A stretch of DNA of 64,000 bases from IMG/VR virus record IMGVR_UViG_3300014204_000114, positions 123,795-187,794 of that record; one strand, given 5' to 3'. This DNA is from a virus (lineage: Duplodnaviria > Caudoviricetes). A program made the position numbers and the translations under genes. Of this stretch, positions 17,005-54,486 are shown in pieces. Below the pieces are notes generated by a model. It was not told the origin of the DNA. It worked only from the letters and a program-made list of their open reading frames with translations, and searched no databases. Positions within the stretch are counted from its first letter, which is position 1; every line of letters begins with the position of its first letter.

Positions 17005-17210
17005 AGATTATTAACTCGATTCGTTAGTACCGTTAATTGTGATTGTATACTATTAACTGTCGTTTGAAGTGTTTCTAGTGACGACTGTAATAGGACCATT
17101 AATTCGTTTAACTGTTTCTTAGAGGCTAGTTGGTCTGTTTTTTCTTGTAACAAATTAACTTGCTCTTCAATGTTGACTATCCTCTCTGTTTCAGCGGCAG
17201 ACCACGTCAT
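17001..17210 (-). CDS. small coiled-coil protein
   Basis: GGAG RBS before ATG 17210 (MTWSAAETER); heptad pattern. Confidence 0.6.
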   Translation of the reverse strand: MTWSAAETERIVNIEEQVNLLQEKTDQLASKKQLNELMVLLQSSLETLQTTVNSIQSQLTVLTNRVNNL

Positions 17211-26157: not shown

Positions 26158-26167
26158 ATTACCCTTT

Positions 26168-28281: not shown

Positions 28282-28282
28282 A

Positions 28283-28717
28283 CTATTTACCTTTCTTGAA
28301 TCTTCTGAGTTTTTCTTTTTGCTCTTCGATTGCGTCATCTGTTGATTCCTTTTCTACTTCGACTCCAATAAAACTAACTTTACTTTTAGCCCCAAGGACC
28401 ATAATTGTATCGTCGGTCTTCGGAACTTCTATTCCATCCTTAATCATATTTTGTATGTTACCAGAAACGCTTAAGGATTGCAAGTACTTTTTTATCTCTA
28501 TTTTAACTTCGGCGGCTATCTTAGAAGCAAGATCCTGGATTTCTTTATCTGACATATCAGATTTAACCCCGAATTCTTTATTTAAATTCGGGAGATTAAT
28601 CCTTACCTGTTGCATTTCTTCTCCTCTTCCAGGAATAAAACTCCTGACGAGCTTGCCTCCCTTAAGTTTGTAGTTAAACATTAAACCTTTTAATATTTTG
28701 CAAATTAAATCAAACAC
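28283..28717 (-). CDS. hypothetical protein, putative actin partner
   Basis: Stop lies 1 nt before the actin start; C-terminal amphipathic helix DDAIEEQKEKLRRFKK. Confidence 0.6.
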   Translation of the reverse strand: MFDLICKILKGLMFNYKLKGGKLVRSFIPGRGEEMQQVRINLPNLNKEFGVKSDMSDKEIQDLASKIAAEVKIEIKKYLQSLSVSGNIQNMIKDGIEVPKTDDTIMVLGAKSKVSFIGVEVEKESTDDAIEEQKEKLRRFKKGK

Positions 28718-34595: not shown

Positions 34596-37229
34596 TTATA
34601 TAACAGTAGGAGTTAAAATCCTGACAGCCATCTCGTCTGTCGATTTAGATATACCAACTCTTAAAGAGACGTCCCCAGCTGTATAACTTGATATATCTAA
34701 TGTAGCTGTACCGTCTTTCGCAAGATAATAAACCTGTCCGGCAGTTAAACCAGCTAACCCAGTGACTAACCCTTCTACGCACACGTTTATATTCTCTCCT
34801 GAGGCCACGGTAGCCAAAGCCATCCCAACTGTCGTGTCGCATGTGTCTATATCATCCGCGCTCGCTACGGCAACTCTATCATCCTGCCCCGAAACAGAAT
34901 ATACGAAGTCTCCTGCTGACACTGATTCGTATGCCACATAAGGTATAACTGTAGACTTCGCGGAAGCTGCTAGCGCACTTGTAGTCACATAAGTTACAAC
35001 CGCCTTTTCTGTTGGAATAGCTAAATCGGAGTTCCCAGCCATTGTCCCATCTGAACTAAACTCATTAATGCGGACGCCGTTCTCTAATTGAACCCCACTA
35101 TAAGTAGCGTTTAAAGAGTCGTGATAAGTTGCCCCGCCATCTTTTTGTTTAAAGACGATGTCCTGGCTTGACCCTTCGGTGTCTATAAGTATGCCATTCC
35201 CATCATACCCCATTGCCCCGCCGTCAGAGACTAATACAACTCTGTCTCTAAATGTGGCAGAAGTATGATCCGCCGGGTAGCCTAATACGCCTCCTAAAAG
35301 TCCATTAGAATTAGTGACAAGCAGACCCGCGACTGCTCCTACGCCAGACCCAGTATTAACTACATTAATGAAGTATGGCGCAGCAGAATTACCACTTAGT
35401 GCCATTTGTCCATCAGTGCCTAAAGTTACATTATCTAGCCAGCCATTTAGTTCTGTATATTCGCCAGACTTTAAGTGATAATATTCATTCGCTTGGCCGC
35501 CCTGGAGACCAACTAAATCATTATGCGTATCTGGTATCTGCGCGTCTACATAAGTTTTTACGGCTTTTTCAGTCGGGACTGCAGAATCACTATCACCAGC
35601 TAAAGTTCCATCGATACTAAATTCATCTATAGTTGCACCGGACGCCAAAGAGATACCGCTCGAAGTTATAGTAGCTAGAATAGTCAAATCCGTTAGCTCT
35701 TGCCATTGGCCAGAAGTGACATGATATCTATCGTTTAATGCGCCGCCAGTTAATCCGTCCAAGCTGTTATGGTCGACTATATGCTCAGCTTCAATTACTC
35801 CTGACCCGGCATTAATTCGAGTTACGATCATATTAACGCCGCCCTCAGTATCTACCTGAGTAGCTGTTACATTATGAGGATTAGTATAGTCTGTTATATG
35901 GACTTGGTGCCCCGAAGCTATTTCCTGTAAGGCTCCTTCTGCATTTGAGGAAGAATAGTACCACCCAGAATCTACTATACTTACTCTTGTGGCAGGAACG
36001 TCATCTGCGGTTTCAGCTAGGACCTGAGGGATTGTTACATGATGAGGATTAGCTAAATCAGCTAAGTGAGCTGCCAGTCCGGAAGTAGTGACTGTAGATA
36101 CGTTATATAAGCCTAGATCTAAAGCTCCTATAGCAGTTTCGAGAGAAGTTCCATTTGTTACATAATGAGTAGTGGAATAAGCCGGGGAAAAATCTGTCGC
36201 ATCAGCTTGTCCTGTGAATAGTTGTATATTCCCAAGGACATTAACCCCCGCGGTTAGTCCTTCTATATCAGTATAAGCATAACCCCATGGGTTAGAAGCT
36301 GATTTTGTACCAGTTCCTTTTGTAGAAACTAAAAGATCTTCAAGGCTATCTGCTCCGCCAGTATATAATGGAGTTAATGCGGTCGTCCATGCCGCCGTAC
36401 CTTTTAGCTCTTTAACCTTGTATCTTATATTATTAATGTCGTCGTTTAAATTAGATGGAGTCCCGTCCCATGCATCTACTAAGCCCGTAATACCTACTTT
36501 AGATGCTGTTATAGGATCAGACATACCTGTCCCGGCAACTATATCATCATTAGAGATAAGATGGATTAAGGTTATGTCAGAATCCCAAGTTCCGCCATGT
36601 TGGGTTAAGAGAGCACTAATCATCTCTTTTATGTCGTAATTAACTAAGGATGCCGTGCCGTCATTTTTTAAAGTGCCAGTAGAACCATATATATCTAAAG
36701 CTAACTGGTTGATATTGAGTCTGTTTATTTCAGACTTGCCATCCAGAGAGGTAGAAGAAGAGGATTTGGTTACGTCAAATATATGCCAGCCGATAGCTGC
36801 TTTCTGCGCGTCTGTTAGTTCTCCGGAGTCTTCCCCTCCGCCGCTATTTATTAAGTTTTCAAGATATACTTTTACAGCATCTACATAATCGTAGATGGTT
36901 AGCATTGACTCTTTTATTGTAGAGGGTCTGCTGTCTGTAGTGTCCCAAAAATAACCATCGTCGGATATACTTGTGGCTTCGTTATCAGCATAGATGTTAG
37001 CCCCATCTAAGTAATTCCCAAACGCGTTAATATCCGCATCATCTGTACCATCCGGAAGAGTATTGAGCATAGGGATAATTTTAAGATTAAGCTCGTCGGA
37101 GATATTGGATAAGTCCGCCAGAATTTCATCTATGGTAGAGTTCCATGTGTCGGTATCTAATCCGGCGCCTCTGCTCGGAAGTCGTCTGCTGATAAGATTT
37201 ACTATTATAGTATCAATATAATTTGCCAT
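34596..37229 (-). CDS. tail fibre protein
   Basis: NPH.VT repeats, GTSLETAIGALD, modules A and B, C-terminal capsid-cement/DUF2190-like domain (ESVSAGD..GMAL..GLTAGQVYYL). Confidence 0.8.
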   Translation of the reverse strand: MANYIDTIIVNLISRRLPSRGAGLDTDTWNSTIDEILADLSNISDELNLKIIPMLNTLPDGTDDADINAFGNYLDGANIYADNEATSISDDGYFWDTTDSRPSTIKESMLTIYDYVDAVKVYLENLINSGGGEDSGELTDAQKAAIGWHIFDVTKSSSSTSLDGKSEINRLNINQLALDIYGSTGTLKNDGTASLVNYDIKEMISALLTQHGGTWDSDITLIHLISNDDIVAGTGMSDPITASKVGITGLVDAWDGTPSNLNDDINNIRYKVKELKGTAAWTTALTPLYTGGADSLEDLLVSTKGTGTKSASNPWGYAYTDIEGLTAGVNVLGNIQLFTGQADATDFSPAYSTTHYVTNGTSLETAIGALDLGLYNVSTVTTSGLAAHLADLANPHHVTIPQVLAETADDVPATRVSIVDSGWYYSSSNAEGALQEIASGHQVHITDYTNPHNVTATQVDTEGGVNMIVTRINAGSGVIEAEHIVDHNSLDGLTGGALNDRYHVTSGQWQELTDLTILATITSSGISLASGATIDEFSIDGTLAGDSDSAVPTEKAVKTYVDAQIPDTHNDLVGLQGGQANEYYHLKSGEYTELNGWLDNVTLGTDGQMALSGNSAAPYFINVVNTGSGVGAVAGLLVTNSNGLLGGVLGYPADHTSATFRDRVVLVSDGGAMGYDGNGILIDTEGSSQDIVFKQKDGGATYHDSLNATYSGVQLENGVRINEFSSDGTMAGNSDLAIPTEKAVVTYVTTSALAASAKSTVIPYVAYESVSAGDFVYSVSGQDDRVAVASADDIDTCDTTVGMALATVASGENINVCVEGLVTGLAGLTAGQVYYLAKDGTATLDISSYTAGDVSLRVGISKSTDEMAVRILTPTVI

Positions 37230-37237
37230 TATTCCCT

Positions 37238-39469
37238 CTAGTTACTAACCTTGATTCTGACAAGGCTGCAAGTCGGAGTCTCTTCCGTACTGTCAGTCGT
37301 AAGTTTTATCCTTAGTTTTATCTTATTAAAAATTTCCTGATCCATTCCAAACGATATTAAAAACTCCTCGCTTAAAAGATCATCATGAGTTATATCAGCC
37401 TTTATAACGAAGACTTTATTGCCGCCTTCGTAAGCTTCCGATACTCCACCAACTGTAGCAATCGTAGACCCAAGATCGGAGTCTATAGCAAAGTATTTAT
37501 ATCCGTCAGAAGCTATGTTGCTTATCATATCAAACACACTAACTTTCTCCATATAAAACTCGGCAAATAAGTCAACCCCGACATACACTTGAGTCACGTC
37601 GGTAGACCAGCCAGAACCGTAATCATAGCCTTCTATCAAATACTTATGATTATATGGATAAAGTTTATCTTCAGCTATAAGGGCTGCTAACGTATTATAA
37701 TCATTAGATATTGTTAGCCAGTTGTCCTTATGCACTTTTATATCATGCCTTCCCCTTACTATAGATATTTTACCATAGATAGGAATCCCGTCAATTATAG
37801 AAGCTGATGCTGCTGTTTTTGGGTTGCCGAAATCTATTTCTATCTGGTCTTTCTCCACATATATAGTAGTAGAATAGTAAGGGTCTACATAACCCCATCC
37901 TTTAGGATTGCCTCTAACTAAACTAGTGCTCCCAAGAGTCCCGGTATTACGCCATACTTCAAGACTCTTTTTATCCATTACTACATCGCTTTCGACTCTA
38001 AGATTAAGAATCCTGTCTTCAGGGTTGTTAAACATATAGGTCTGAGCGCCGTCAGAATAGTTATTAGCTAAACTTCCTATTACTACATCCACTTCATTTA
38101 GAGTAGTAGTCCATCTTAACAGATTAAAATCTGATTTGGCGGGGATGTACCTGTAAGTGTTCACGCCGGAATTTACTATTTCCTGACTTACTGTCACTCC
38201 TGTTTTCTCATACTCTACAAGAGAGTCAAACTTTATAAAAGAGGGTTCGTTAGAAGAAGATCTGTTTAAGGGGCATATCTTCCCGCCTTCCCAGGGAGTC
38301 CACGCAGATAAAGTATCGCTTCCTGCAGATAGCCAGTATTCTATCTTCGTATTATCAGACATACTTTCACAGACTTCTATCGCGGCCTTATTGAATGTTA
38401 CTTCATTATTGTCTTCATCGTAGAAGTAGATTTCTCCGGTCTGTACGTATCCTTCTAAGTCGTCATAAGAATAAGTGTATAAGGAGATGTCCCCGCCGAA
38501 ATAATAAGCGTTTAAATCATTAGCTAAACTCTCGTCCTGCATATCCTTAGTAAAACCTATCTTAAGATAAGAGAAGGTTATAGACGGGAAGGTAAACACG
38601 CAAGAATCTTTCATAGCCTGAATATAGTCAGCTATTGGAAGATTGTTCCATGTGTACCCGTCGGTAGAATATTGAGGATGTATAACTACATTACCGCTTC
38701 TGTTATTAGCATTCCATTTTATAGCTAGTCTGGTCGCGGTTACTTCTTCGTCGAAAGAGACTCTCATTACAGCGGTTACAGTCGTAGGCTTTGTCGTCCT
38801 AACTACAGTCAACCATGTTTCGTCAGTATCCCTAAAAGCATACTCTACTTTTGATCCCTCTATATTAGACTGACTGTGATAGTAATCCCTTGAGATGACT
38901 TCGAATTTAACATTATCTCCAGTCAGCTCGTTGGTGTTTATTTTCGCGGAGTCGCCGGTAGGTTCGAGGGCTATAATTCCATAGGATGTGTCTATCATAC
39001 ATCCGTCCGTATAATCGCTCGTAAAATCTATAGAATCGCTATTAGTAAGGTTAACTATAGCAAATGCGAAATATCCTTCCGTGTCTTTTCTGACTAATAA
39101 TAAACCTTCAAGTTCGTCTTCTAGCTCTAAAAGCTTACGAGAGATTCTATCTATCTCATTACCCCATTTAGTTTCTCTGTTAACTATCGCGCCGCCTATA
39201 TCAGAAGCAGCTAGATACAAAGCGTCTATATCTCTTCTTATTCTTTCCTGCTTATCGTTAAAGTCCGCCGCGGAAGATTCTTCAAGTCTTACGTATGAAT
39301 CATCCTCAGATATATCTGGGGTCATAAGGTCCGGATTAGTTTCAAGATAATCGACATACTCATCCATAACTTCGGAGGCTAAAATGCTCTCTCCGTTAAT
39401 CATCTTCTGTTTAACTATGTCCTCGATGACTATGGCTGAATATACTTCTTTGAAATCTTTATAACTCAT
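37238..39469 (-). CDS. baseplate-peripheral structural protein (coiled coil plus discoidin-like domain)
   Basis: DFN..I..DIDALYL coiled coil; DTDETW, YSTDGYTW. Confidence 0.65.
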   Translation of the reverse strand: MSYKDFKEVYSAIVIEDIVKQKMINGESILASEVMDEYVDYLETNPDLMTPDISEDDSYVRLEESSAADFNDKQERIRRDIDALYLAASDIGGAIVNRETKWGNEIDRISRKLLELEDELEGLLLVRKDTEGYFAFAIVNLTNSDSIDFTSDYTDGCMIDTSYGIIALEPTGDSAKINTNELTGDNVKFEVISRDYYHSQSNIEGSKVEYAFRDTDETWLTVVRTTKPTTVTAVMRVSFDEEVTATRLAIKWNANNRSGNVVIHPQYSTDGYTWNNLPIADYIQAMKDSCVFTFPSITFSYLKIGFTKDMQDESLANDLNAYYFGGDISLYTYSYDDLEGYVQTGEIYFYDEDNNEVTFNKAAIEVCESMSDNTKIEYWLSAGSDTLSAWTPWEGGKICPLNRSSSNEPSFIKFDSLVEYEKTGVTVSQEIVNSGVNTYRYIPAKSDFNLLRWTTTLNEVDVVIGSLANNYSDGAQTYMFNNPEDRILNLRVESDVVMDKKSLEVWRNTGTLGSTSLVRGNPKGWGYVDPYYSTTIYVEKDQIEIDFGNPKTAASASIIDGIPIYGKISIVRGRHDIKVHKDNWLTISNDYNTLAALIAEDKLYPYNHKYLIEGYDYGSGWSTDVTQVYVGVDLFAEFYMEKVSVFDMISNIASDGYKYFAIDSDLGSTIATVGGVSEAYEGGNKVFVIKADITHDDLLSEEFLISFGMDQEIFNKIKLRIKLTTDSTEETPTCSLVRIKVSN

Positions 39470-42400: not shown

Positions 42401-42789
42401 TCAGCGAGCTTTGAATAAACAGCCTGAAGCCTATAATCAAGCTGTCCTAATTTTAGGACAACTGTATTAAACGAGTTTATAATAAGCCCTTCTAGAACTT
42501 CGGATTCAGCAAATAGAACTGTAAGGTCGTCGGTTATGGCTTTTAATATCTCGTTAAACTTAGCAGGATCAGGTAATGTATTCGCCCTGACTTTTTTAGG
42601 AGAGAAGAACGCAGTGCTATCTTCGTCTAAGTAGACCTTCACCAATCTGGCGAGTTCGGACATAAGAGCAGCCTTAGTCTCGATGGTCCCCTGGCTGTAG
42701 GCTGAACTCAATTCATTCCTAATAACAGTCAGCTTCTGTTCGAGAATAGTGCTGGAAACTTTTTTCAAATAGTCGTTATTAGTACTCAT
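39469..42789 (-). CDS. large baseplate-peripheral structural protein
   Basis: KFNEIL..DL..LFAE; DNDPSTW, SLDGSTW; YRTGAVTFGD..G..P and repeated YS(V/I)DY..G motifs. Confidence 0.7.
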   Translation of the reverse strand: MSTNNDYLKKVSSTILEQKLTVIRNELSSAYSQGTIETKAALMSELARLVKVYLDEDSTAFFSPKKVRANTLPDPAKFNEILKAITDDLTVLFAESEVLEGLIINSFNTVVLKLGQLDYRLQAVYSKLADYILFASDRSSDVLYFKESFSSMTGMNPTSSALKGNFCDINLQEGIATLDIREGDTPLATPNSVRINAASNGVAGNNQEIGAQRRDDLQAITDNDPSTWYEYEKVVKSIAINDAPLILDMSLIYDSPKIINRVYLDPINFGTIKYPEIVSIDTSLDGSTWSSIKDDLSVADFLADDPENIFLLSPAASRYRGTGCWTFTPRKVKFVRIVIKQRYPHLISTPIGKQYRYAIGLRTINVYGYKFESSSQLISKRIDFGAPIDKVVLTSAQTPIAESSLAGIDHFVSPDDGQTWYQISPKDFESSDQSTPRLLNFNNSESNSINTSQDVTSLTYKAELYRNSDAFSKGGKNEVEKPISEVFAIPTRNPYTIDLSEKPVQDSVTIIDPVFGGRGKDEVFFQTSVIRSTAPNISFVLPWADVSHGGILPALDKISGWRKYEDSGATMSGVYQVDRTQQESLYVDGRKWDKVNNLTVSGIGSTSKVYSLNYRTGAVTFGDSTNGEKPASGATATLKLKEERLAPSSFVPHKSVLDFASDGVQENVNLYRYDENVIVSNIVLKAGEREHKIYSDGRIVYDEEITLSGILSSVDPGGYLASELVFKDGYVEFIEALYGSITPGQEYNLDSETEGYYSVDYEHGTLYTSAPIAGSQKTMVTFEATPVYKLLDTEWYFYNNLSNTIIVNDAAYTTKDELAYSIPIILSGEHRLVLPDFSIAHGVTFNETVSGAQVDSEYRTFRKEVPYIDGDTEFKGALVTSTQDILGVTEYTDTNIAYFSLLNPLYSVTDAPPYFSDTSFFNNRESSLGAVSALGDWYYESTSQRIYFYKGVLSVSSLNAGQIGYQYTDPTSDDWGLYSIDYKKGVIYTRNGLFGPDPYTQNTWSYSDLPDAIEVTYQYTDYRIQYNIAAQLDASQYEVNYDKQLVTLKDKDIIDRLTKSNTSLDRYVKIAYRYVVSISEYLKELENYFTPVLSDIAIRVSPKRRF

Positions 42790-44738
42790 TATGCCTCACT
42801 GAACTTATCTTCATTATACTCGCTTACGAGCAAATAGTAATCATATACCGAAGGAGATATGTATTTGTCCGGCGATATCTTTCTAATTATAACCTGTAAG
42901 AATATGTCTGAATGATCTATATCAATTCCGAGAGTAGAGTCGTCGCATATTAGATGATCGGTTATCATCCTGACGGATTGGTCGCCTACCATATCTACTA
43001 CCATATAAGGATCGTCGGATACAGCATAAGCCGCGTTATATTTAGCTGCGCCGTCTGAAATTTTAGGAGTATAAGATGCAGTATAAACTACTCCGTACTG
43101 AGGACTGTTTATTTTAATCTCTACTCTCATTGGAGAACCAGCTCCGGGAGAAGAAATGTCATTATCGTCGGGGAAGGTCCAGTCGGTAGAAAATGTGAGC
43201 TCTGAACCGTTCGCGTATACTTTTACTTCGTCCCCAGGGTCTGCAGGGGGCGCAGCTGTTAATAAAGGATAAAACCTTAAAGCGGTTCTGCTCTTATTAT
43301 CTAATACGCAAACTTCATGCTCTACTGTTGTCCTACCGACTGGTAGTATAGGTATGAGATTAGATGAAATTACATCTCCGTCAGAGTTGTAATTTACTTT
43401 TAGGATGGAATATTCAATTGAGCCGGCGTTTATATTAAAGGTGTCAGCAGGAACATCATCATTGACCCTTAACGCTATTTGTCCTAATTTGCCAGATAAA
43501 GAAGCACCAGCGAATATTCCGACATGTTTATAGTTACTTAGGCCGAATTTAACATTGTCTAAAGAGAAAGGATACACGTTCTTCTTACTAACATATGTAT
43601 AAGTAGTGCCGGTTGAGAAGTTAATCTCATCCGCGATTTGAGAGGTCCGCAGTACGTTCGCGACCATCCCATTTATGTCTGTAAGAGTATATCCGCCTTG
43701 TCCCATTAAAGACCTGTATCGATCATAATAGAACTCGGTCACTCCAGCCACTGTCGTTTGCACGAATTTCAGCCTAAATTTTCTTGTGTTAGTAGTAGTG
43801 AAATCTATTCTATGGTAAGAATTCTGTAAATAAGTCTCGTCGTTTACTAGGTTTACCCATGACCCGTCCGGACCAGCATAGTCAACAGAGGTTAAATAGA
43901 ACGGGCACGAGCCTGCAGGTTCGACTATTATATGGTTTATATCCGACTGGGGGACTTCAAAAACGAGATACATTATAGCTCCGTCCGCTAATTGCGTATC
44001 CATTAGGTATGCACGATTAAAGAATGTGGCATTTTGGTTATCGATTAAGTTCCTTATATCAGACTTGTCAAAGTTGACGTCAAAGTCAGATACTGTAGCG
44101 TCGCCTTCACTCCATTCCTGATATACGTTCTTTGCAAATACCTGCTTTGTAGTAGAAGCTAATAAGAGCCTGTCGTTAGTTAAGTCTGTATAACAAAGGT
44201 TCTTGTCCGAGAAGAATGTACGTGCGCGCCAATCATAGTAAAGCATATTAGCATAAGTATCGCTGAAGGAAGATTCGAGATTCTCTCCGCCGTTAAAAGT
44301 GTTATACTGAGCGTTAGAGTAGTTATAGTCGCTTCCGTATATAGTCTTGTATATCTGAATTTTGTTCTCCAGAGAATTGATTGAGTTCCACATCCCCTTA
44401 AGAATCATAGTGTCTATAATTTGGTCGTGGGTAACATTCAACTGAAGTAACGTGTCCATTTCTAAGAAGAGAGTCTGTAAGTCATACCCAAGCTTAAGCA
44501 TCATTTCGTTAAACGCCGCGACTTTTATTAAGTTGCTATTGGCCGCATAGTAAGGTTTGAAGTAAGGCTTTATATCAGACTTTAATCTGTCTGTTAATTG
44601 AGCGAGTCTTGTAGCGTAGTCGTTGTCCGTAATGATTTCGCCGGATTCAATTTTAGTACGAATTTCTTTATAAAACTGCTTCGCCTGCTGTTTGCCTAAA
44701 ACCGAATCTATTTTATCTATTAATCTTAACTTGCTCAT
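42789..44738 (-). CDS. baseplate-peripheral structural protein (paralogue of the two downstream genes)
   Basis: AFNEMM..DLQTLFLE; LIDNQNATF; PDGSW. Confidence 0.65.
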   Translation of the reverse strand: MSKLRLIDKIDSVLGKQQAKQFYKEIRTKIESGEIITDNDYATRLAQLTDRLKSDIKPYFKPYYAANSNLIKVAAFNEMMLKLGYDLQTLFLEMDTLLQLNVTHDQIIDTMILKGMWNSINSLENKIQIYKTIYGSDYNYSNAQYNTFNGGENLESSFSDTYANMLYYDWRARTFFSDKNLCYTDLTNDRLLLASTTKQVFAKNVYQEWSEGDATVSDFDVNFDKSDIRNLIDNQNATFFNRAYLMDTQLADGAIMYLVFEVPQSDINHIIVEPAGSCPFYLTSVDYAGPDGSWVNLVNDETYLQNSYHRIDFTTTNTRKFRLKFVQTTVAGVTEFYYDRYRSLMGQGGYTLTDINGMVANVLRTSQIADEINFSTGTTYTYVSKKNVYPFSLDNVKFGLSNYKHVGIFAGASLSGKLGQIALRVNDDVPADTFNINAGSIEYSILKVNYNSDGDVISSNLIPILPVGRTTVEHEVCVLDNKSRTALRFYPLLTAAPPADPGDEVKVYANGSELTFSTDWTFPDDNDISSPGAGSPMRVEIKINSPQYGVVYTASYTPKISDGAAKYNAAYAVSDDPYMVVDMVGDQSVRMITDHLICDDSTLGIDIDHSDIFLQVIIRKISPDKYISPSVYDYYLLVSEYNEDKFSEA

Positions 44739-46814
44739 TTATAACACCATCGAAGTAACGATTTCTTCCTTAGGAGTCTCTACACTATCTATTAACGTAA
44801 CGATTGAAACGTCGTATGTTTTATTATTGGTTAGTCCGCTCACGACATAAGTATTCACTCCGGAGGTCAAACTATTAACCGGAGAAGCATTATGCTTAGT
44901 CCAGTTATTAGTCCCGTACTCTTTATAATAGAAATTGTACTCGTCAGTAGGATCCTGTAGATACCAATAGATACCCATCAATCCGCTTGCTACGTAGATA
45001 CCGCTAATAGAAGGAACGCTGTCGTAAGTATATTTGAGGTATGGATAAGTTCCCGCGGCGGGATGCCTATCGACAATAGCTACTACATCATCTTCGGAAA
45101 ACTCTCCGCCATAAGTATCCAAAACATCATAAGGAGTCATAACAAAGAAAGACGCAGGCTGCATATGAGGTAACGGTATGTCTGTATACCATTGTATTTC
45201 AGGATAATAAGTTAAAGCTTCTGCAGTTTTCTCTTTTACTACTCCGCCGCCTTTTACTCTAGTATCAAATAGTAGTATGGCGTCATTATCTATAGCTTCG
45301 CTGACTGAAAGCTCGCCAAGAATAAGATACTGATATAAGTTCCCGGACGATAATACGGAATAAGAGGTTTGGAATCCAGAGTACGTCATAGCTTCTACAG
45401 TAGAAGATATATTCATGTTACCGTCGGGAGTCCCCGTAGAAGTAGGAGACAAGTCATTCCTTTGACTACAGTATTCTACGTTATCTCCATCGTCAATAAT
45501 TAAGTGGTAGATAGATCTGCTTCTAGAAGAGTTATCGTTAGGAGTCGCTTCCGGAACACAGTAGAGGCATATCTTCTTTCCTATTATATCTCTGTTGTGT
45601 AGAGGGTTAAAGTTCACGAGGGGATAAAGGTAAGTGTCCAACTGATGGTAATACGTTACTTTAGCCGTATAATCCATCGACAGATTTTTGTTTAACTGGA
45701 TAAAGCCGCCATAAGTATCGACATACTGAATATATCCATAGGAAAAATCGACTCCATAATCAGACTCTGTGCCGTCCTTATCCTGATCTGTAGTGAAGGC
45801 ATATAAGCACGTATCGTTCGTGTCAAATATAAATACATCTATATCAAATCCTTCCGCGGAATCATAATAGACTCCACCAAATTGGGCTTTTACTATATAC
45901 GGATAGACTAGTAATGCGTCTTCGTTTATAGCTGCTATGTATGGGTAATAGGGATAGAAAGATTGGTTGTAAAATTCCGGCACGTCATATACGTAATTGT
46001 ACCCGCTAAAAGATCTCGCAAATCCGTCCGTTGTGACTCTTACATTCCATGATGCATCAGAATCTAAGTTCTCAGGGACTAGTATTCTAACTCCGTCTGC
46101 ATCCTCAGCCTTATAGGAGTATGTCGTAGATTGTGGTAAAGTGAACTCGTAGCTTCCGGCGCTGTATTCCATTATATAAGCTTTAGCTGTAGTTTTTAAT
46201 GTTCCGCCGCCAGTTAAGTCATCTATAGTCGCAGCATGGAATAAAGGGGAATTATCCAAAAGCTCAGTATAAGTGGTATAAGTCGTTCCGTCTTTAACGA
46301 CATATCTTACATAATAAAGCTGCAAGTCTCCAGAAAAGTCATCATACTTATTCTCTAATAGATTGAATATGTTGCCAGTATATAATCCCGTGCCACCATC
46401 TTCCTCTAGCGTAAACCCATAAGTCACTTCAGCCATATTAATGTCATATATTACTATAGACATTACTTCTTGAGTGCCGCCAAAAGTAAAGTTCTTTAAA
46501 GCGTGATTAAAGAACAGAGGAGCAGCTATTGAGTTAGACGCCGTACTGACATATTCATCCGTGACTAAGATGTCGTCAAACTTAGAACTAAACGTAGAGC
46601 TCGTAAAAGTTAGATAAACGGACTCGTCTAAAGCGTATACATTCTCTTTCAAAACTGAATGCTTGTCTACCAATCCAATATTATTATTAGACTTTAATTT
46701 CTCCGATACATAATAAGCCAATATTACATTATCAGGTCTGGTCGAAGAGACCGCCCGAATCTTATGTATATCCCTTATAATATATAATCTAGTATCACAA
46801 GAAATAGTAGGCAT
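44739..46814 (-). CDS. virion structural protein with C-terminal Fn3 domain
   Basis: DTRVKGGG motif; C-terminal YW..YNFYY..YVVSGLTNNKTYDVSI (Fn3). Confidence 0.7.
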   Translation of the reverse strand: MPTISCDTRLYIIRDIHKIRAVSSTRPDNVILAYYVSEKLKSNNNIGLVDKHSVLKENVYALDESVYLTFTSSTFSSKFDDILVTDEYVSTASNSIAAPLFFNHALKNFTFGGTQEVMSIVIYDINMAEVTYGFTLEEDGGTGLYTGNIFNLLENKYDDFSGDLQLYYVRYVVKDGTTYTTYTELLDNSPLFHAATIDDLTGGGTLKTTAKAYIMEYSAGSYEFTLPQSTTYSYKAEDADGVRILVPENLDSDASWNVRVTTDGFARSFSGYNYVYDVPEFYNQSFYPYYPYIAAINEDALLVYPYIVKAQFGGVYYDSAEGFDIDVFIFDTNDTCLYAFTTDQDKDGTESDYGVDFSYGYIQYVDTYGGFIQLNKNLSMDYTAKVTYYHQLDTYLYPLVNFNPLHNRDIIGKKICLYCVPEATPNDNSSRSRSIYHLIIDDGDNVEYCSQRNDLSPTSTGTPDGNMNISSTVEAMTYSGFQTSYSVLSSGNLYQYLILGELSVSEAIDNDAILLFDTRVKGGGVVKEKTAEALTYYPEIQWYTDIPLPHMQPASFFVMTPYDVLDTYGGEFSEDDVVAIVDRHPAAGTYPYLKYTYDSVPSISGIYVASGLMGIYWYLQDPTDEYNFYYKEYGTNNWTKHNASPVNSLTSGVNTYVVSGLTNNKTYDVSIVTLIDSVETPKEEIVTSMVL

Positions 46815-46817
46815 TTA

Positions 46818-49766
46818 TTATCCTAACTTTGCTTCGAGTTTAGCTAGTCTCTCCTCTAGTTCTATATTCTTATCACGGAGCTTCTTCATCTCAGGGAGCA
46901 TAAGAACTGCAAGTAACGGATAGTCAACAGCGTCTGGTTCTTTGTTTTTGTCAAAAACGGCAAGCTGAGGCATGACCATAGCTACCTCTTCCGCTATTAG
47001 ACCAATCGAAGTTTTTTTATTTTTTTTCCATATAAATGAAACCGGCCTAAGGTCATATACTTTACTGGTATCCAACAGCATATCTTTAATATCTTCTTTA
47101 TACTTCTTAGACGACGCGCTCCTAAATACCATTTTATCGCCAGAATCATCATACTTTAAGTAATAATCACCGCCGACACCTGGATCTTGTTCAAGAAAAA
47201 CATTTCCTGTAAAGTGCGAGTTGCTGCCATTACTAACTGTAAAACCGTCGTCTACATATAAATGATTAACAACTTCTACGTTGTCGCTAAGTAACAAGTT
47301 GCCAACTGACGATCTTATGTAGCCGCCAGAAGTCATAACTAAATTTCCTGTTATATCAGCGCCTCCAGCGTTGATGGTCAATCCTCCAGAATTTACGACT
47401 ATCGCAGCGTTAGAATAAATACCACCAACCCCACTCGTACCATCTACATATACACCATAGCCTGAACTAGAAGACCCTGTTGTGATTACATATAGGTCTC
47501 CTCCTCCAGCTATAGTTGCCCTGCCATCAATGTAAGCGCCACCTCCACCAATTAAAAGGCCATATCCGCTTCCGGTACTACTCCCTACGCGAATACCATA
47601 CTGAGTCCATAAGCTATAATCCTGCAGGGCTTCGCCACTACTAATGCCAGACCCGCCAGATATTTTACCGTTAATCTGAGCTCCGCCAGCTCCCCCTACT
47701 CCGTTGCCATTAACATACAGTGCTGTTCTCGTGTTCCCAGCTGTACCATATCCACCGTCTATCCATAAACCATAAACAGCTCTCATAGACCTAGAATTGT
47801 AAGGATCACCTACACTTACTCCGGCAGCATAAATACAGCCAGCGCTGGCAATTATATTCCCTGCAGTAGCTGTAATGTTACCACTAGTCACGCCTAAATT
47901 ACCAACTGAGACAGTTAGATTATTTCTACAGTCTATCGTCGTAGCTGCCGAACCATTATATCCAGAAATATTACCTAAATATAATATACCGGCTACAGCG
48001 CCTTCACTTATAAGACCTGACTGATAGATTTCAAAATGATCAGTTGTGGATTTTAAAAGCCATTTTTGATCAGTATGGAGAGTTCCACCGTACATATAAA
48101 TACGGCCACCAATCGTTGTGTCGTATCCGCCTATATGCAAACTGCCAGCGCCGCCTGTCGAAAGACCCGCGGTTCCACCACTAGTACCAGTCAGTCTAAC
48201 ATCTCCACTACCACCTATAAAATCATAAGCTCCACCAGTTACAGTAGTAAAGGTCAGAGCTGTATTTCCTTGGTCGTAATAAATACTTGGACCTGTATAT
48301 GCTCCAGCAACACTTAAAGAACCAAAGACTATTCTTCTAGAGTCATCCGTAATATTGTTATACCTAGTGCCTGAATTTTTACTTGCGAGAAGTAGATCTC
48401 CAAGCATAGCATTGCCGTATGGATCCCTCTGGTATTCTGAAGTTGTAGGATCAGTACTTCCTAAAGGTCTTCCATCCCAACCCCATCTATGTAAGTATTG
48501 GACATGATCGTCCTGTTGCCATCTGGAAGGGGGAATGGTTATTCTTGTTTGAGTTGCAGGTAAACCTGTATCAGCTGAAGTTGGAATAAGTCCTTCTAAA
48601 TCAGCATGATCTATTCTATATGTTGGGTCTCCCGTAGGAGTATTAGCACCATCATCATTATAGTCTCTTTTATGCTTGTGGTTTAGAAGGAGATATCTAT
48701 TGTAATCTAATTGGGATGTTAGATCTGCTCCGCCGGTACTATTCATAACTATCAGGATGTAATCGCTTGAAGGAGTTGCGCTGGTTGTTAAAAGTCCCGC
48801 GGCGCTATCGTCTGCATATATCTCGGTAGACCCAGCCACAAAACTCTTAGTAGTAAATGTCACGCCTTGGATTATAGACTGAGTACTAACTTTATATATC
48901 ATCATTAGGCCTTGGGGGACAGCCGCGCCAGTTCCAAGAGCTACAATATTAGGAGGGAGAGACATAGACTGAGCCCAATATGCTGCAGATTCAGAACCAG
49001 AAGGAACCTGATCAGATGTTTTTCCGGACGCGTCAAGAGTCGATCTTGTGCCCGAACTACCTACTGCTCCTATACTAGCAGGAAGAGTGATTAAATAATC
49101 GTGGCCGCCGGAACCAGTATTTATAGTAAGTCTTTTAACAGGGTCTAAAGTCGCAATATCAAACGGTGCAGGATACATGGTTAAATAACTATTAGGTCTC
49201 CATGCTCCACCACCCGCATAATACATTCCTATGTCTGAAGGTATGTCCGCACTGTATGTAGCTTCAATACCAGCCGTTAAGTCGTCATAGCAATAAAGCA
49301 CGCCAGCAGAGCTGACATAATAATCTCCAGTCCCATTTACTCCAAACTTCCCATCGTTAGGGGGGGTGCCATTGCCGTCGTAATGACAGGTACCGCCTTG
49401 TAGAGGCGCGGAGTCAAAACTTATACCGCTAACGGTAGTACTTAAATCATCATGAGGACAGAAAGGCAGAACATGAACAGTGCCAGCACCTAAAGTTATG
49501 GCTACTTCCACATCTGATGCCGGATAAGATCTCGGAGTTAGATGTTTGAGCATACCTATAGTTCTGGCTATGTTTATAACTGCTGGGTTGTCTTGACCTG
49601 TTGTTCCGTAATACTCTCCCCAAACATCGCCTATTACTTTCTCTAAAATAGTAACCGCAGCCTTAGCCTGAGAAGATAAGTAAGTAAGCTTAACAGCAGT
49701 AGGTTGCTCGCTGCTATAAAAATCTATATCAACCGGATAAGTTGTGCCTTTTTTATCGTCAGCCAT
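46818..49766 (-). CDS. tail fibre/spike with C-terminal intramolecular chaperone (Peptidase_S74)
   Basis: Gly-rich beta region; SSKKYKEDIKD..LRPVSF.W..GLIAEEV..VDY..coiled coil; HKH and DDHVQYLH motifs. Confidence 0.88.
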   Translation of the reverse strand: MADDKKGTTYPVDIDFYSSEQPTAVKLTYLSSQAKAAVTILEKVIGDVWGEYYGTTGQDNPAVINIARTIGMLKHLTPRSYPASDVEVAITLGAGTVHVLPFCPHDDLSTTVSGISFDSAPLQGGTCHYDGNGTPPNDGKFGVNGTGDYYVSSAGVLYCYDDLTAGIEATYSADIPSDIGMYYAGGGAWRPNSYLTMYPAPFDIATLDPVKRLTINTGSGGHDYLITLPASIGAVGSSGTRSTLDASGKTSDQVPSGSESAAYWAQSMSLPPNIVALGTGAAVPQGLMMIYKVSTQSIIQGVTFTTKSFVAGSTEIYADDSAAGLLTTSATPSSDYILIVMNSTGGADLTSQLDYNRYLLLNHKHKRDYNDDGANTPTGDPTYRIDHADLEGLIPTSADTGLPATQTRITIPPSRWQQDDHVQYLHRWGWDGRPLGSTDPTTSEYQRDPYGNAMLGDLLLASKNSGTRYNNITDDSRRIVFGSLSVAGAYTGPSIYYDQGNTALTFTTVTGGAYDFIGGSGDVRLTGTSGGTAGLSTGGAGSLHIGGYDTTIGGRIYMYGGTLHTDQKWLLKSTTDHFEIYQSGLISEGAVAGILYLGNISGYNGSAATTIDCRNNLTVSVGNLGVTSGNITATAGNIIASAGCIYAAGVSVGDPYNSRSMRAVYGLWIDGGYGTAGNTRTALYVNGNGVGGAGGAQINGKISGGSGISSGEALQDYSLWTQYGIRVGSSTGSGYGLLIGGGGAYIDGRATIAGGGDLYVITTGSSSSGYGVYVDGTSGVGGIYSNAAIVVNSGGLTINAGGADITGNLVMTSGGYIRSSVGNLLLSDNVEVVNHLYVDDGFTVSNGSNSHFTGNVFLEQDPGVGGDYYLKYDDSGDKMVFRSASSKKYKEDIKDMLLDTSKVYDLRPVSFIWKKNKKTSIGLIAEEVAMVMPQLAVFDKNKEPDAVDYPLLAVLMLPEMKKLRDKNIELEERLAKLEAKLG

Positions 49767-49775
49767 TTTTTAACC

Positions 49776-51920
49776 TCATACGAAATAGCCGCCGCTTAGA
49801 CCGCTATTTACATTAACAAATACAGCGCCATCTAACGCGGAAGCATGTCTGTAAATTCCAGACGGAATTCTAAATCCTAAAGGAATCCTTACTTCTCCAG
49901 ACGGTACATTAGCAGGATAAATGCCAAAATAATCGAAGGCTTCCCACAAAGTTTGCTTGTCGCTCATACCATCTGTAAGTATTGTAACACCCTTCATATA
50001 ATCGGGCAATAAGATGTTTATATCTACCTCATTGCTATATACTAATCCTCTTAATTGACTATACGCGAAAGCTCTGACTGTAGTGACGCCTTCGGATATT
50101 AGCTCGTAGCCCCTCAAGCTCCCTGAAACTCCGCTTAAAGTATATGGATATATGACGTTTGTTCCGCTTATAGTCGTCGGCATAATCGGAGCGTTAGTCC
50201 CTATTAGTCCTGTAATTGGATCGTAAGCTAGAGCGTCAGAAGTACATACCATCATCCTACGAGCATTTCTAACTTCATCTCTATAAGCTACTGGAACGGG
50301 AAGACCAAAGAACTCGCGCCGGGCTATTTCTCTATCTATAACTTCCTGAGATATACCGCTAACTGTAGGATAGAATCCTTCGTCTACTAAGTATTGTTTT
50401 ATAGCGTCATTTACACTATCTACAGATAAGAGATCGTCATCGCTATATAAAGCGTAAAGATAAACACTATCAGTATCTCCATATACTTCCGTACTAAATA
50501 CTAAATTCGAATATAAGCCAGATGTAGTTACAGAAGAAGTAAAGTTGGTTAGAGAGTTAATGGTTGTAGGCGCAGTCAAATAAGTATATGCTTTGCCTTC
50601 AGCATTAGTATATGAAGTTATGGAATCTGAAGAGCCGCCTAGTAAGCCTATCACCGGCTCGGATATTATTTCAAACGTTACTTGTATATCAGATAAGACA
50701 GACCCGCTCTTATCATAAACAGTAGCCATTAAAACCGAATAGTTGTTACCTACGTTCAGGAAGTATTCGCCGCTGGTATTTTTAGATTCAAGCACTACGG
50801 AATACGGGTCGTCTATAAACGGGCTCATAACTATAAAGCCCTTATCCGTACCATTTACTAAAGGATACATATTTAAGTAGTTTATTAGTCTTGTGTCTTC
50901 CGTATCATCAGCTTCATATTCGAGAGAAGGTCCGTATTTATATCTTATGTAGAACTCTGATGTTTCGTCCGGCCTGATTCCGTGAGTGCCATTACCAGTT
51001 CTGAATTGGCCTATTTTCCAATCTACTTCTACGGAGTGGTCTCCAGAAGCGCAGGTTAATAAGTTATCTACCGGCGTCCAGGATGTATAAGAGCCGCCGT
51101 CTATAGAATAAATGTCTACGTTTGAGATGCCGGAAATGAGAGGGTAGTAACTACTGAAGAAAGCACCATTCTCTGCACTTTCAGATATCGTGCCTTTGTA
51201 TTCCAGCATCATTATGTCATCGAGGCCGGTTACGGTTATGTTGTCCCATGGAGCCTGAATATAGTTCTTATTATATATAGCTGTTGGAGGACTAGTAGAC
51301 CTGTCTAAAGTAAATTCATCGTAAGAGTCGTCAACGTTCGCCCAGACTATATTGTTACCCGAGTCTATTGTAGATTGCTCTTCTCCAGAAACTACAACTC
51401 CAGTGAATCGATAAACGTGCTTTATATCTCTTAAAACATTAACAGCTTCTTCGTCGTACCTACTATAGTATTTAGATTTTAAAGGAACTCCGCGTTTTGG
51501 TTCATACAGCAGCTGTATTTCGTTAGTCCCTTCCGAGTTTAAGCCTGAAGGAACAGGCTGTGAAATACACCCATCCGAATGAAAATAGAAGTCATCAGTC
51601 CTAAAGAAGTAAGTTCCATGGTCTATATTCGGCGACCATAAATCGACACCAGAAGTATAAACCTTATCTATACTTTCTACGTATAAATCATCATCATCGC
51701 CTATGCCCGCCTGCAGATAACCAGAGTTAATGTATTTTATATTAACCCCGGAAAGCTTATTCATTATGCAAGTTTCGGGATAGTCGGCAGCTCTAGCCCA
51801 CGCAGAATCATCCCATAGCCAACCTGAAACATCTTTAGAGGTTGAATATGCGCCGATCCTGAAATCTCTTTCATTCAGCTTATAGACTACAACTTTCGTG
51901 TCACAATATATAGTAGTCAT
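49776..51920 (-). CDS. baseplate/virion protein with Ig-like (Big_1) domain
   Basis: ATVYDKSG..SDIQVTF..TNAEGKA; VDWKIGQFRTGNGTHG.RP wedge-type motif; start MTTIYCDT at 51920. Confidence 0.7.
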   Translation of the reverse strand: MTTIYCDTKVVVYKLNERDFRIGAYSTSKDVSGWLWDDSAWARAADYPETCIMNKLSGVNIKYINSGYLQAGIGDDDDLYVESIDKVYTSGVDLWSPNIDHGTYFFRTDDFYFHSDGCISQPVPSGLNSEGTNEIQLLYEPKRGVPLKSKYYSRYDEEAVNVLRDIKHVYRFTGVVVSGEEQSTIDSGNNIVWANVDDSYDEFTLDRSTSPPTAIYNKNYIQAPWDNITVTGLDDIMMLEYKGTISESAENGAFFSSYYPLISGISNVDIYSIDGGSYTSWTPVDNLLTCASGDHSVEVDWKIGQFRTGNGTHGIRPDETSEFYIRYKYGPSLEYEADDTEDTRLINYLNMYPLVNGTDKGFIVMSPFIDDPYSVVLESKNTSGEYFLNVGNNYSVLMATVYDKSGSVLSDIQVTFEIISEPVIGLLGGSSDSITSYTNAEGKAYTYLTAPTTINSLTNFTSSVTTSGLYSNLVFSTEVYGDTDSVYLYALYSDDDLLSVDSVNDAIKQYLVDEGFYPTVSGISQEVIDREIARREFFGLPVPVAYRDEVRNARRMMVCTSDALAYDPITGLIGTNAPIMPTTISGTNVIYPYTLSGVSGSLRGYELISEGVTTVRAFAYSQLRGLVYSNEVDINILLPDYMKGVTILTDGMSDKQTLWEAFDYFGIYPANVPSGEVRIPLGFRIPSGIYRHASALDGAVFVNVNSGLSGGYFV

Positions 51921-52894
51921 CACTGCCCCCAATAAATAGCAGCTTCTTCGAGCTGACTATTAAGAAAATCTATGCCTAATTTGGTAGGCAGGCTATATAC
52001 ATAATTACCATAAGCGTCGGTAGTATAATGAAAGAGCTTGTCTTTGAAGTTGTCTTCGTATGGACTATAAATCATTACAGGCGCAGCCTTTAATGTAAAT
52101 GGAAAATCGTTATACTTATATCTGATTGAGGATGCTGCGGCGGGAGTAGAATACGAATAAATCTTGCCGTTCTGATAGTCGATATAAAAATCGCCAACAA
52201 CAGCCATATCAGACTCTTGATTCTTTTCGCCCGCAAAGACATTAGCACTTATTCTGTATGTAGAAGGATTTGGTACGTTCCCGTCATATGCGTAAGTATA
52301 CTGTTTATATGCTATCTGGTCCGAGAAGTAAATGCTGCCTTTTACTACGTTTGTATTTTTAAGGCTGTATGCAGGGAGAGAAGGAATCGATTCGCTCGCA
52401 ATTAACTTACAACTTATCTGGTCGTAAACCTTCATGCTTCGAACATAACTACCACATTCTAAAGTTGCCGTGAAGCACGTAGAATTAGCATTTATATAAT
52501 CGACTAAGTCCCCTACAAAATACCCATCCCCGCGGTTAAACAAATCTATGTTTAATTCTTCTGTTAATACATCATAAGTATAATCTGAATAAAGGATAAG
52601 CTTGCTCGCTTTAACTTCTACTGCCGGATTGGTCGCAACGTAAACGCCGCCGCTATAATTCGGAGTGATAGTCAAAGCGTCAAATAATTCATATCCTAAA
52701 TCCCTATTAATAGCATATATAATCCCCATATAATCAGAGCCTGATTTATGAGACATACTGTCATAAATTCTTAACTTATAGGAGGCGTTACTTTCATCAG
52801 GCAGTCTCTCTACGCCATAGAATAAACCTATATCGTCTAACCCGTTGAATGAGTTATAGAAATTTAAAGTACCTGTTGCGGTAGAGACTGTCAC
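51920..52894 (-). CDS. baseplate wedge protein (gpI/gp7-like N-terminus)
   Basis: LDDIGLFYGVERLPDESNASYKLRI motif. Confidence 0.7.
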   Translation of the reverse strand: MTVSTATGTLNFYNSFNGLDDIGLFYGVERLPDESNASYKLRIYDSMSHKSGSDYMGIIYAINRDLGYELFDALTITPNYSGGVYVATNPAVEVKASKLILYSDYTYDVLTEELNIDLFNRGDGYFVGDLVDYINANSTCFTATLECGSYVRSMKVYDQISCKLIASESIPSLPAYSLKNTNVVKGSIYFSDQIAYKQYTYAYDGNVPNPSTYRISANVFAGEKNQESDMAVVGDFYIDYQNGKIYSYSTPAAASSIRYKYNDFPFTLKAAPVMIYSPYEDNFKDKLFHYTTDAYGNYVYSLPTKLGIDFLNSQLEEAAIYWGQ

Positions 52895-54486
52895 GTATAC
52901 TTAACCTCTACGGTTCCATAATCTTCGGTAAAGAAAACCATTAGCCTAGAGTAATCTATCAAAGCTAGATCTCTGTGTAATACTAGTTTATGATACTTTC
53001 CGTCCGCGGTCAATATCCAAAGGTTTCTATCTGAGTCAAATGCCATACCTATCATATTAGAACTGAATAAAGAGTAGAGATAGATCTCTTGTTTTGGCGC
53101 CAAAGTATTTACAGATATTATCTTTTGATCCCTCGAAACAGTCTGATCTTCATATAAACATTCAAGAGTAAATAAGTAGTCTCCTGTTTGGTCTACAGTA
53201 AAGTCATAGTAGAAGGAATCGACAAAACGTCCTATTTCAAAGTCTGCGTAAACGCTATCTCCTACAGTCACTACTCCGCTTTTTGTAATTTGTCTTTGGG
53301 TGCCGTCGGGATAATCAACCAGTATTCTATATTTGTTTACTGGAGAAATCGGTCTGCGGTTCCATACCTGGAATGTAATCTCTTCGTTTAGATAAGCAAA
53401 ATACCTTTCGAAAAGGAGGATGCAGTTTGCGTCATAATCCTTTATTTTTAGAAGGGAGAAGTCAGGTGTCTGCTGAGGGTACTCTGCCACGTATAGTTTC
53501 GTAGAGTCTATATAGTATACATGTTTTCGTAGATGATCTACTTCTACATCTAAAGCGGTAATAGAGTAGCCGTTAGAATCGATAAGCTTAGCGGCATAGA
53601 ATACGTCTCGTTCTGTATACCCTAATTTCAGTAAGTCTAGGTCGTTCACTGCATATGTGGAATGTTCTATATAGCTACCGTCGTTCATCCCAGAGACATT
53701 GATAAAGTAAGGTTTAGCGACTCTCGAATTTACATCGTAGTAAGTATCATAATAGCACTTTCTGTATTCTATATTAAACGGCATACTTAATAAGAGTATA
53801 GAAGAATCATCATTATACATTCTCTTAAACTCAATTCCATCTATATGAGAAAACTCGCCAGGCATAATATTTGGACCGGGGCATACAAAATTCATCTTCA
53901 TCGTAGAGTCTTCAGCGACTCTATTTAAGCCCGAGTAAGCTATTTCGCCTATCGAATATTCTTCTTCTATGGAAGACTCACCGGATACGACTAAAGTTAT
54001 CTGGCCGCTAGCTACACCTAAATCCGTATCTAAAGATAAGGATTGATTATATCCGCTTAGTATCCCCGCATATAAAATATGGGATTCGCCGCTAACAGTT
54101 TCTGCAACCGTAACTCTATTGGGCGCTGAATCATACCAGAACTCATCTATCGTATTTGGTATAACCGGAGATATCTGAGTCAGACTTCCGGAGATAGTAA
54201 CATAAACTAGAGGAGGAATGTAATCAGGGACATGCTGATCTGTCGCGCCCATTTCAAATTCAAAGTCCGCGGGGAGCTCAAAAGTATATAAGGGACCCAT
54301 CTCGTCAAGATTAAACGAAGTCAAATTAAGATTATTAGTCTTAGATTTAGCATAATGAGAAAGCTCTTCTATAGGCTCACATAAAGCACACAGAAGTTGC
54401 TTTATTACGCTCTGATCGTCCATTCTAGCATCGGACCATTGCGGAAAGTTTAAAGAAACCAGATCTACAAATGAAGGCTTATCCAT
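52891..54486 (-). CDS. baseplate structural protein
   Basis: Directly after baseplate J; FPQWS N-terminus; acidic and beta-rich. Confidence 0.65.
   Translation of the reverse strand: MDKPSFVDLVSLNFPQWSDARMDDQSVIKQLLCALCEPIEELSHYAKSKTNNLNLTSFNLDEMGPLYTFELPADFEFEMGATDQHVPDYIPPLVYVTISGSLTQISPVIPNTIDEFWYDSAPNRVTVAETVSGESHILYAGILSGYNQSLSLDTDLGVASGQITLVVSGESSIEEEYSIGEIAYSGLNRVAEDSTMKMNFVCPGPNIMPGEFSHIDGIEFKRMYNDDSSILLLSMPFNIEYRKCYYDTYYDVNSRVAKPYFINVSGMNDGSYIEHSTYAVNDLDLLKLGYTERDVFYAAKLIDSNGYSITALDVEVDHLRKHVYYIDSTKLYVAEYPQQTPDFSLLKIKDYDANCILLFERYFAYLNEEITFQVWNRRPISPVNKYRILVDYPDGTQRQITKSGVVTVGDSVYADFEIGRFVDSFYYDFTVDQTGDYLFTLECLYEDQTVSRDQKIISVNTLAPKQEIYLYSLFSSNMIGMAFDSDRNLWILTADGKYHKLVLHRDLALIDYSRLMVFFTEDYGTVEVKYT

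Follow-up and report, generated by a model that had tools for sequence, protein, structure and literature searches.

A lineage-specific Ser-Gly excess in two baseplate proteins of an uncultured phage, with virion O-glycosylation as a candidate cause

In the mycobacteriophages Che8, Corndog and Myrna, C-terminal extensions of the capsid and tail tube subunits are said to bear sugars, and a Ser-Gly sequon is not reported for them. In chloroviruses, glycans are N-linked to the major capsid protein at atypical sites. Virion glycosylation of the three mycobacteriophages by phage-encoded glycosyltransferases (GTs) is reported by Freeman et al. 2023 and mentioned in PMC11256854. The bacterial autotransporter heptosyltransferases (BAHT) are the only family known to heptosylate Ser; they form dodecameric rings and take ADP-heptose as donor. 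Of these enzymes, AAH and TibC act on AIDA-I and TibA (PMC4358343). Here, we analysed a window of 64,000 nucleotides from an uncultured phage (Duplodnaviria, Caudoviricetes; positions 123,795 to 187,794 of IMG/VR record IMGVR_UViG_3300014204_000114), in which two neighbouring baseplate proteins of 714 and 531 amino acids (aa) hold the dipeptide Ser-Gly (SG) far more often than their composition predicts. An earlier sequence-only reading of the window had taken SG in its virion proteins for acceptor sites of an adjacent GT operon, by analogy with AAH and TibC.

The locus resembles the AAH/TibC systems in that a GT9-type enzyme is encoded near its candidate substrates. If the phage enzymes act on these, the likeness would extend to a soluble GT-B enzyme that works in the cytoplasm on a folded surface protein rich in beta structure, modifying many Ser within short inter-strand loops. 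However, the candidate substrates are predicted chains of beta-sandwich domains and not beta-helices, the motif is SG followed by a hydrophobic residue and not SGG repeats, and the presence of GT9 does not follow the SG excess. The mycobacteriophages likewise have GT genes of their own adjoining structural genes, and the enzymes are presumed or demonstrated to decorate virion proteins; in contrast, the candidates here are baseplate and fibre proteins with putative sites scattered over loops. Like the chloroviruses (B736L, PDB 3oy2/3oy7), the phage would glycosylate its own virion proteins with soluble cytoplasmic enzymes, but those are eukaryotic viruses, and the similarity of a phage GT4-family enzyme (GT4a) is at the level of the GT4 fold only. 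New in this analysis are the contrast between SG-high and SG-low phages with the same protein fold, a negative control in phage T4, and a first comparison of the trait with GT gene content.

Ser-Gly excess in the tail module

Every dipeptide was tested in every gene of the phage's 188-kb genome (G000). Expected SG numbers were taken from each protein's own composition, and family-wise p values from 300 whole-proteome shuffles. SG in the 714-aa protein was the strongest gene-by-dipeptide outlier across the genome (family-wise p about 0.003). The protein had 20 SG and 4 GS, with 6.1 SG expected (z 6.4), and 20 of its 59 Gly were preceded by Ser. Its p value was matched in one of the 300 shuffles by any dipeptide and in none by SG. 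The 531-aa protein showed the second-ranked SG excess, with 8 SG and 2 GS where 2.3 SG were expected (shuffle p 0.0005); Ser preceded 8 of its 26 Gly, and six of the eight SG fell at residues 99-185. The asymmetry goes beyond composition, as had been claimed.

The genes lie on the minus strand in the order wedge, 531 aa, 324 aa, 714 aa, fibre with S74 chaperone and further large tail proteins:

54479..55705, minus strand, gp6/Baseplate_J-like wedge protein, the internal negative control (1 SG, 2.1 expected)
52891..54486, minus strand, 531-aa baseplate protein, directly after the wedge gene
49776..51920, minus strand, 714-aa outer baseplate protein, predicted chain of beta-sandwich (Ig/MG/Fn3-like) domains with 226 homologues
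46818..49766, minus strand, 982-aa fibre with a C-terminal S74 chaperone domain
44739..46814, minus strand, 691-aa tail protein with a weaker SG excess
34596..37229, minus strand, 877-aa tail fibre protein (PHROG tail fibre)

Three of the large tail proteins were marginal. The 691-aa protein had 8 SG against 1 GS (p 0.04, uncorrected), four of the SG being at residues 604-659, and the 877-aa protein had 15 against 4 (p 0.012, uncorrected). The Gly-rich 982-aa fibre had 20 against 14, with little asymmetry (p 0.01-0.04, uncorrected). The primase-helicase encoded at 13480-16011 had 6 SG against 4 GS. No SG excess was found in the virion proteins encoded at 37238-39469, 42789-44738, 51920-52894, 54479-55705 and 57009-59672. 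The regional observed/expected ratio (O/E) of SG fell from 1.57 for the tail module to 1.20 for the remaining structural region and 1.11 for the genome outside both. The strong excess was limited to two adjacent baseplate families, and a few other proteins showed a weaker one. All hand counts of the sequence-only reading were reproduced (20 SG against 4 GS in the 714-aa protein, 8 of 26 Gly after Ser in the 531-aa protein, 8 against 1, 15 against 4, and 6 against 4 in the primase-helicase), and the genome-wide O/E and shuffle comparison that it had proposed placed the 714-aa protein on top. Its statement that virion proteins are SG-enriched held for the 714-aa and 531-aa baseplate proteins; as several virion proteins were at expectation, the class as a whole was drawn too broadly.

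The 714-aa protein is read from an ATG (718 aa from an upstream TTG, end 51932). No relatives of it were found by a word-based search, a single-protein IMG/VR search or tblastn against cultured phages; a full HMMER search returned the 226 homologues. AlphaFold2, run with a 73-sequence alignment, gave a chain of beta-sandwich domains with a predicted local distance difference test score of 84. Foldseek matched this model to complement MG domains, the lambda tail tip, intimin and a contractile-injection-system baseplate protein. In its confident part, Gly was in coil at 17 of 17 SG. S90-G91 and S178-G179 formed two-residue hairpin turns, and at S467 and S585 the Ser was the last residue of a strand. 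Mapping onto a predicted structure, which had also been proposed, thus placed all 17 modelled SG in loops of the monomer, at strand ends, where they are predicted to be exposed. Position -2 was occupied by V, I, L, T, Y or C at 14 of the 20 SG sites (background 0.385, p 0.004).

Several trivial causes were rejected. The codons at the SG sites were varied, as Ser was encoded by five different codons and Gly by all four of its own, which speaks against a DNA motif or a codon-pair origin; the excess therefore acts on the protein and not on the DNA. A mere co-location of Ser and Gly in loops does not account for it, since shuffling the 714-aa protein within the coil and the strand/helix classes of the model gave 6.1 ± 2.2 SG, against 17 observed. 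Flexible linkers of the GS type, or low complexity, would raise GS, which stayed at an O/E of 0.9. The outer virion proteins of T4 (gp7-12, Wac, Hoc and gp34-37) had an SG O/E of 1.05 and a GS O/E of 1.03. This control and the non-enriched neighbours exclude a generic trait of outer virion, baseplate, Ig-like or fibre proteins.

The choice of Ser codon at SG sites was uneven in 49776-51920, 52891-54486 and 44739-46814, where AGC was over-used and AGT never used. Gly followed 7 of 12, 4 of 7 and 4 of 10 AGC codons, respectively, and none of the 10, 3 and 5 AGT codons. A codon-pair effect may underlie this bias of AGC over AGT.

Family and lineage pattern

The excess recurred among the relatives of the 714-aa protein. 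Over 149 homologues with a pairwise identity of at most 50%, SG had an O/E of 2.12 (1696 against 799 expected, z 32) and was the top dipeptide by far. The same sequences gave 0.97 for GS, 1.11 for NG, 1.03 for DG, 1.10 for TG and 0.65 for GG, which makes the excess specific to Ser, to Gly and to the order of the two. The sites had V or I at -3, Thr or a hydrophobic residue at -2, and I, M, V or L after the Gly, and K, R and E were depleted. They also shifted between sequences: in the 73-sequence alignment, 256 columns contained at least one SG, and those with SG in at least 30% of the sequences held 21% of all SG. The alignment indicates that positions turn over in this family while their density is maintained.

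The family tree has two clades, and the window's protein falls inside clade B. The O/E values of their representatives were:

Clade B (n=93): SG 2.42, NG 1.03, DG 0.96, GG 0.59, GS 0.90
Clade A (n=44): SG 1.37, NG 1.29, DG 1.20, GG 0.83, GS 1.12

TG, too, was near 1 in clade B. On these ratios, clade A has an ordinary "polar-Gly" pattern. Baseplate synteny was kept in both clades. Judged from the sequences, the two share a fold but differ in SG, and the excess is a trait of a lineage.

Related phages were fetched with an alignment of the wedge protein (anchor 54479-55705), giving 56 IMG/VR loci and several whole genomes. Seven genomes were SG-high (G000, G003, G004 and G012-G015) and three SG-low (G007, G008 and G009). 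A further phage, G011, was SG-low yet nested within the SG-high clade; its contig stops short of the position where the GT cassette is expected. Sums over the protein families, as SG observed against expected or as O/E, were:

714-aa family: SG-high 118 against 48.0, SG-low 17 against 10.9
531-aa family: SG-high 50 against 16.8 (O/E 2.98), SG-low 8 against 7.8 (O/E 1.03)
691-aa family (44739-46814): SG-high 45 against 26.9, SG-low 15 against 16.2
877-aa family (34596-37229): SG-high 37 against 21.6
982-aa family (46818-49766): O/E 1.33 in SG-high, 1.24 in SG-low
All shared families other than the 714-aa and 531-aa: O/E 1.24 in SG-high, 1.21 in SG-low

The 714-aa and 531-aa families stood at or near the top of the SG list of every one of the seven SG-high genomes. 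The two families co-varied although they are not homologous (hhalign probability 0.1%), so that domains common to both were rejected as a reason.

The tail-adjacent glycosyltransferase cassette

A group of four genes lies beside the tail genes:

27271..28338, minus strand, volactin-like actin-fold protein that heads the cassette (Pfam PF25216, E 1e-57)
26168..27274, minus strand, GT9-family glycosyltransferase with a compact four-Cys cluster near the C-terminus (PF01075, 39.5 bits against a cut-off of 22)
24880..26157, minus strand, GT4-family glycosyltransferase GT4a (PF00534, 36.3 bits against a cut-off of 26.4)
23750..24880, minus strand, GT4-family glycosyltransferase GT4b (PF00534, 44.1 bits against a cut-off of 26.4)

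This actin-GT9-GT4a-GT4b cassette (23750-28338) was found next to the tail genes in all seven SG-high genomes. GT4a was the sole G000 gene with a complete profile, being found in each of the 7 SG-high and in none of the 3 SG-low genomes. Among solved structures, the chlorovirus glycosyltransferase B736L (3oy2, E 4e-16) is the closest to it. GT9 orthologues scored above the PF01075 cut-off in G003, G004, G007, G009 and G012-G015. GT4b was present in all SG-high genomes, and SG-low G009 has an 833-aa form of it with a LAGLIDADG insert. The proposed co-occurrence of SG excess and GT cluster was seen in the relatives with the same tail-adjacent cassette, and for GT4a it was complete but tracked phylogeny; it failed for GT9, which SG-low G007 and G009 also carry.

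The GT9 was compared, as a single sequence and as a seven-sequence profile, with all PDB sequences, and no TibC chain was retrieved even at E<=10. The profile matched 3tov, 1psw (WaaF) and 2gt1/2h1f/6dfe (WaaC). The four Cys of the window's enzyme are spaced C-x2-C-x4-C-x5-C; two of them are invariant among the seven phage GT9s, and G003 has two. The iron finger of TibC consists of Cys339, 342, 358 and 370, spaced C-x2-C-x15-C-x11-C (PMC4358343). The GT9 core (GGIGDVLMITP, aligned to 3tov residues 8-19) starts near residue 50-58. Judged from the alignment, the roughly 50 poorly conserved residues before it leave no room for a 97-residue beta-barrel of the TibC type. The phage enzyme is an ordinary GT9, related to 3tov, WaaF and WaaC and different from TibC in its Cys cluster and N-terminus; the analogy with AAH and TibC was not borne out.

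The stop of the actin-like gene (27271-28338) overlaps the start of the GT9 gene (26168-27274). This pairing was conserved, at 38-43% identity, in five related phages (loci L007, L008, L090 and L093): SG-high G003, G004, G012 and G014, and SG-low G007. G008 had a 29%-identical match to the actin-like protein, and GT9 was absent. At L158:7192-9921, G007 has a 909-aa open reading frame (ORF) with a GT9, a GT2 and a second GT9 match, followed by a GT2 gene and a sulfotransferase-like gene; judging by gene content, another kind of glycan cassette occupies this slot of the genome. In the 833-aa GT4b orthologue of G009 (L157:7103-9604), the LAGLIDADG match is at residues about 574-631, and the gene looks to be interrupted by an intein. 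It is followed by an HNH endonuclease gene, a GT1-family gene, a sugar dehydratase and a DegT aminotransferase. In the 170-kb genome of G017 (L170, 147631-152941), the tail module runs straight into the primase-helicase genes, and the slot of the GT cassette is empty.

In more distant genomes, GT content was read from hits to six GT Pfam families. Among the five distant phages with the highest baseplate SG O/E, two (G022 and G023) had a clean asymmetry of SG over GS. The 211-kb phage G023 encodes a 918-aa GT4-GT2 fusion and a 227-aa GT2 inside its baseplate cluster (L075:15577-18944). These GT genes are flanked by SG-rich ORFs of 864 aa (16 SG, 6.0 expected) and 579 aa (11 SG, 3.0 expected, 1 GS).

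Candidate causes and further occurrences

The pattern would be expected if selection in this lineage favours Ser right before the turn Gly of exposed strand-loop-strand elements. The favoured pattern would be hydrophobic/Thr - x - Ser - Gly - hydrophobic, and the targets would be a small number of virion proteins that face outward, chiefly the baseplate proteins of 531 and 714 aa. As a cause, a trans-acting reader of Ser-Gly in these loops would be the most economical. Such a reader is favoured because it explains why the excess is specific for Ser and for residue order, why only a few outer proteins have it, why unrelated proteins shift together, why sites turn over at a kept density, and why T4 and clade A lack it in spite of the same fold. 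The serines could be O-glycosylated by the tail-adjacent, soluble GT-B cassette while virions assemble in the cytoplasm, with the actin-like protein, GT9, GT4a, GT4b and tailoring enzymes as its members. For the SG-reading step, the lineage-specific GT4a would be a better candidate than GT9. We infer both the Ser modification and the enzyme responsible, and tentatively hold O-glycosylation by the adjacent cassette, with GT4a as the lineage-specific component, to be the most plausible form of such a modification. In its broadest form the proposal is slightly less probable: large uncultured phages with contractile tails would possess a virion glycosylation system not described so far, which takes Ser-Gly-hydrophobic in exposed loops as its acceptor code. 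Its soluble GT-B cassette would coat chosen baseplate and fibre proteins with glycans, and the sites would drift like a glycan shield.

A number of observations weigh against glycosylation by the cassette. Membership of the GT9 in the BAHT family was rejected by homology, Cys spacing and N-terminal length. GT9 occurs in SG-low G007 and G009 and in two SG-low distant phages, and it is absent from all five SG-high distant phages. The GT4a profile coincides with a single phylogenetic split. Across genomes, the presence of any GT was not significantly associated with the trait (Fisher p 0.18-0.26), and the baseplate proteins of the GT-rich distant phages G027, G028 and G031 were SG-low. The sequence-only reading had held that equal enrichment in phages lacking GTs would count against it, and a weak form of this was found. 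G017, which is complete and without a hit to the six GT families, had 10 SG against 4.6 expected and 5 against 1.7 in the two orthologues, together 15 against 6.3; this excess, about 2.4-fold, is marginally above the clade-A baseline. GT-less G025 showed an excess as well, milder and less asymmetric. Finally, at the sites where clade B has SG, the aligned clade-A residues were xG in 40% and Sx in 21%, with Ser replaced by T, D or N.

These last observations fit a structural "turn dialect", in which Gly sits where a tight turn or bulge at a strand end needs positive phi, the Ser side chain caps it by a hydrogen bond to the backbone (ST-turn), and Ser has displaced Asn, Asp or Gly in this lineage with no modification involved. 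A glycosylation sequon is the best single explanation, and this structural preference is nearly as likely. As in the ST- and Asx-turns of Ig-like and Fn3 domains, a polar residue and Gly stand at strand ends before a hydrophobic residue, with Gly the more conserved of the two. All SG lie in coil beside strands, several of them in two-residue hairpin turns, and the substitutes follow the order S > T > D ~ N of classical capped turns. NG, DG and GG fall in clade B while SG rises, and the trait occurs with and without GT genes. A structural preference would account for the conservation of Gly, the S/T/D/N substitutions and the lack of dependence on GT genes; it would account for none of the five points that favour a trans-acting reader. 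Ordinary turns take N, D, S or T interchangeably, as is seen in clade A and T4, and NG and DG usually form turns at least as well as SG. Here, the 2.4-fold rise concerns Ser alone and is specific to a lineage and to particular proteins. The same fold occurs in clade A and in T4 without the excess, and neither the joint shift of two non-homologous proteins nor the density kept despite site turnover would follow from turn geometry.

Another lineage-specific pressure on exposed loops is an unlikely cause, be it phosphorylation, acylation, a host enzyme, avoidance of labile Asn-Gly and Asp-Gly, or Ser/Gly-rich receptor-contact loops. The co-variation within the lineage implies a common cause without naming one, and the modest excess in G017 arose with no detected GT. 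NG and DG drop from 1.29 and 1.20 in clade A to 1.03 and 0.96 in clade B, as avoidance would have it; yet they are at expectation and not depleted, and their loss of about 200 pairs compares with an SG gain of about 590. The screen of G000 genes returned GT4a alone with a complete profile, and no kinase or other candidate enzyme that followed the trait was found. The composition of binding loops would not impose an order on Ser and Gly, yet GS stays at 0.9. Chance, a composition artefact or a DNA-level motif is very improbable overall. The uncorrected p values of 0.01-0.04 for the weaker proteins (34596-37229, 44739-46814 and 46818-49766) would leave room for it. For the 714-aa and 531-aa families it is refuted by the family-wise p, the z of 32 over 149 homologues, the replication in seven genomes, the diverse codons and the persistence of the excess under secondary-structure-constrained shuffles.

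If the serines are glycosylated, SG would be a code for phage virion glycosylation that can be read from sequence, and glycan-coated baseplates and fibres could be predicted from metagenomes. This would bear on host recognition, particle stability and the evasion of antibodies by therapeutic phages. Even without modification the signal is unusual, as an order-specific, 2.4-3-fold excess in two unrelated neighbours whose density is kept as sites turn over, and it would point to an as yet unexplained constraint on outer virion proteins. For experiments, a ready natural contrast is offered by the SG-high and SG-low clades, which agree in fold and gene order.

Similar patterns were seen outside the baseplate and in a distant phage. 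Beyond the window, the major capsid gene of G000 is followed by two genes (15188-17257, L160) whose products may be head decoration proteins, one of 370 aa that has Big_5 Ig-like domains and one of 315 aa. The pair is a single fused ORF of ~600 aa in G003, G004, G007 and G009, and family sums for the capsid-adjacent protein count the fused ORFs of these four relatives twice. The capsid-adjacent orthologues in G013-G015 (283-334 aa) were SG-rich, with 19 SG against 5.1 expected and 1 GS. On a distant 45.6-kb contig, a 997-aa ORF downstream of the wedge gene (L070:12723-15713) had 20 SG and 5 GS where 5.9 SG were expected (p 4e-6), a pattern resembling that of the window's 714-aa protein.

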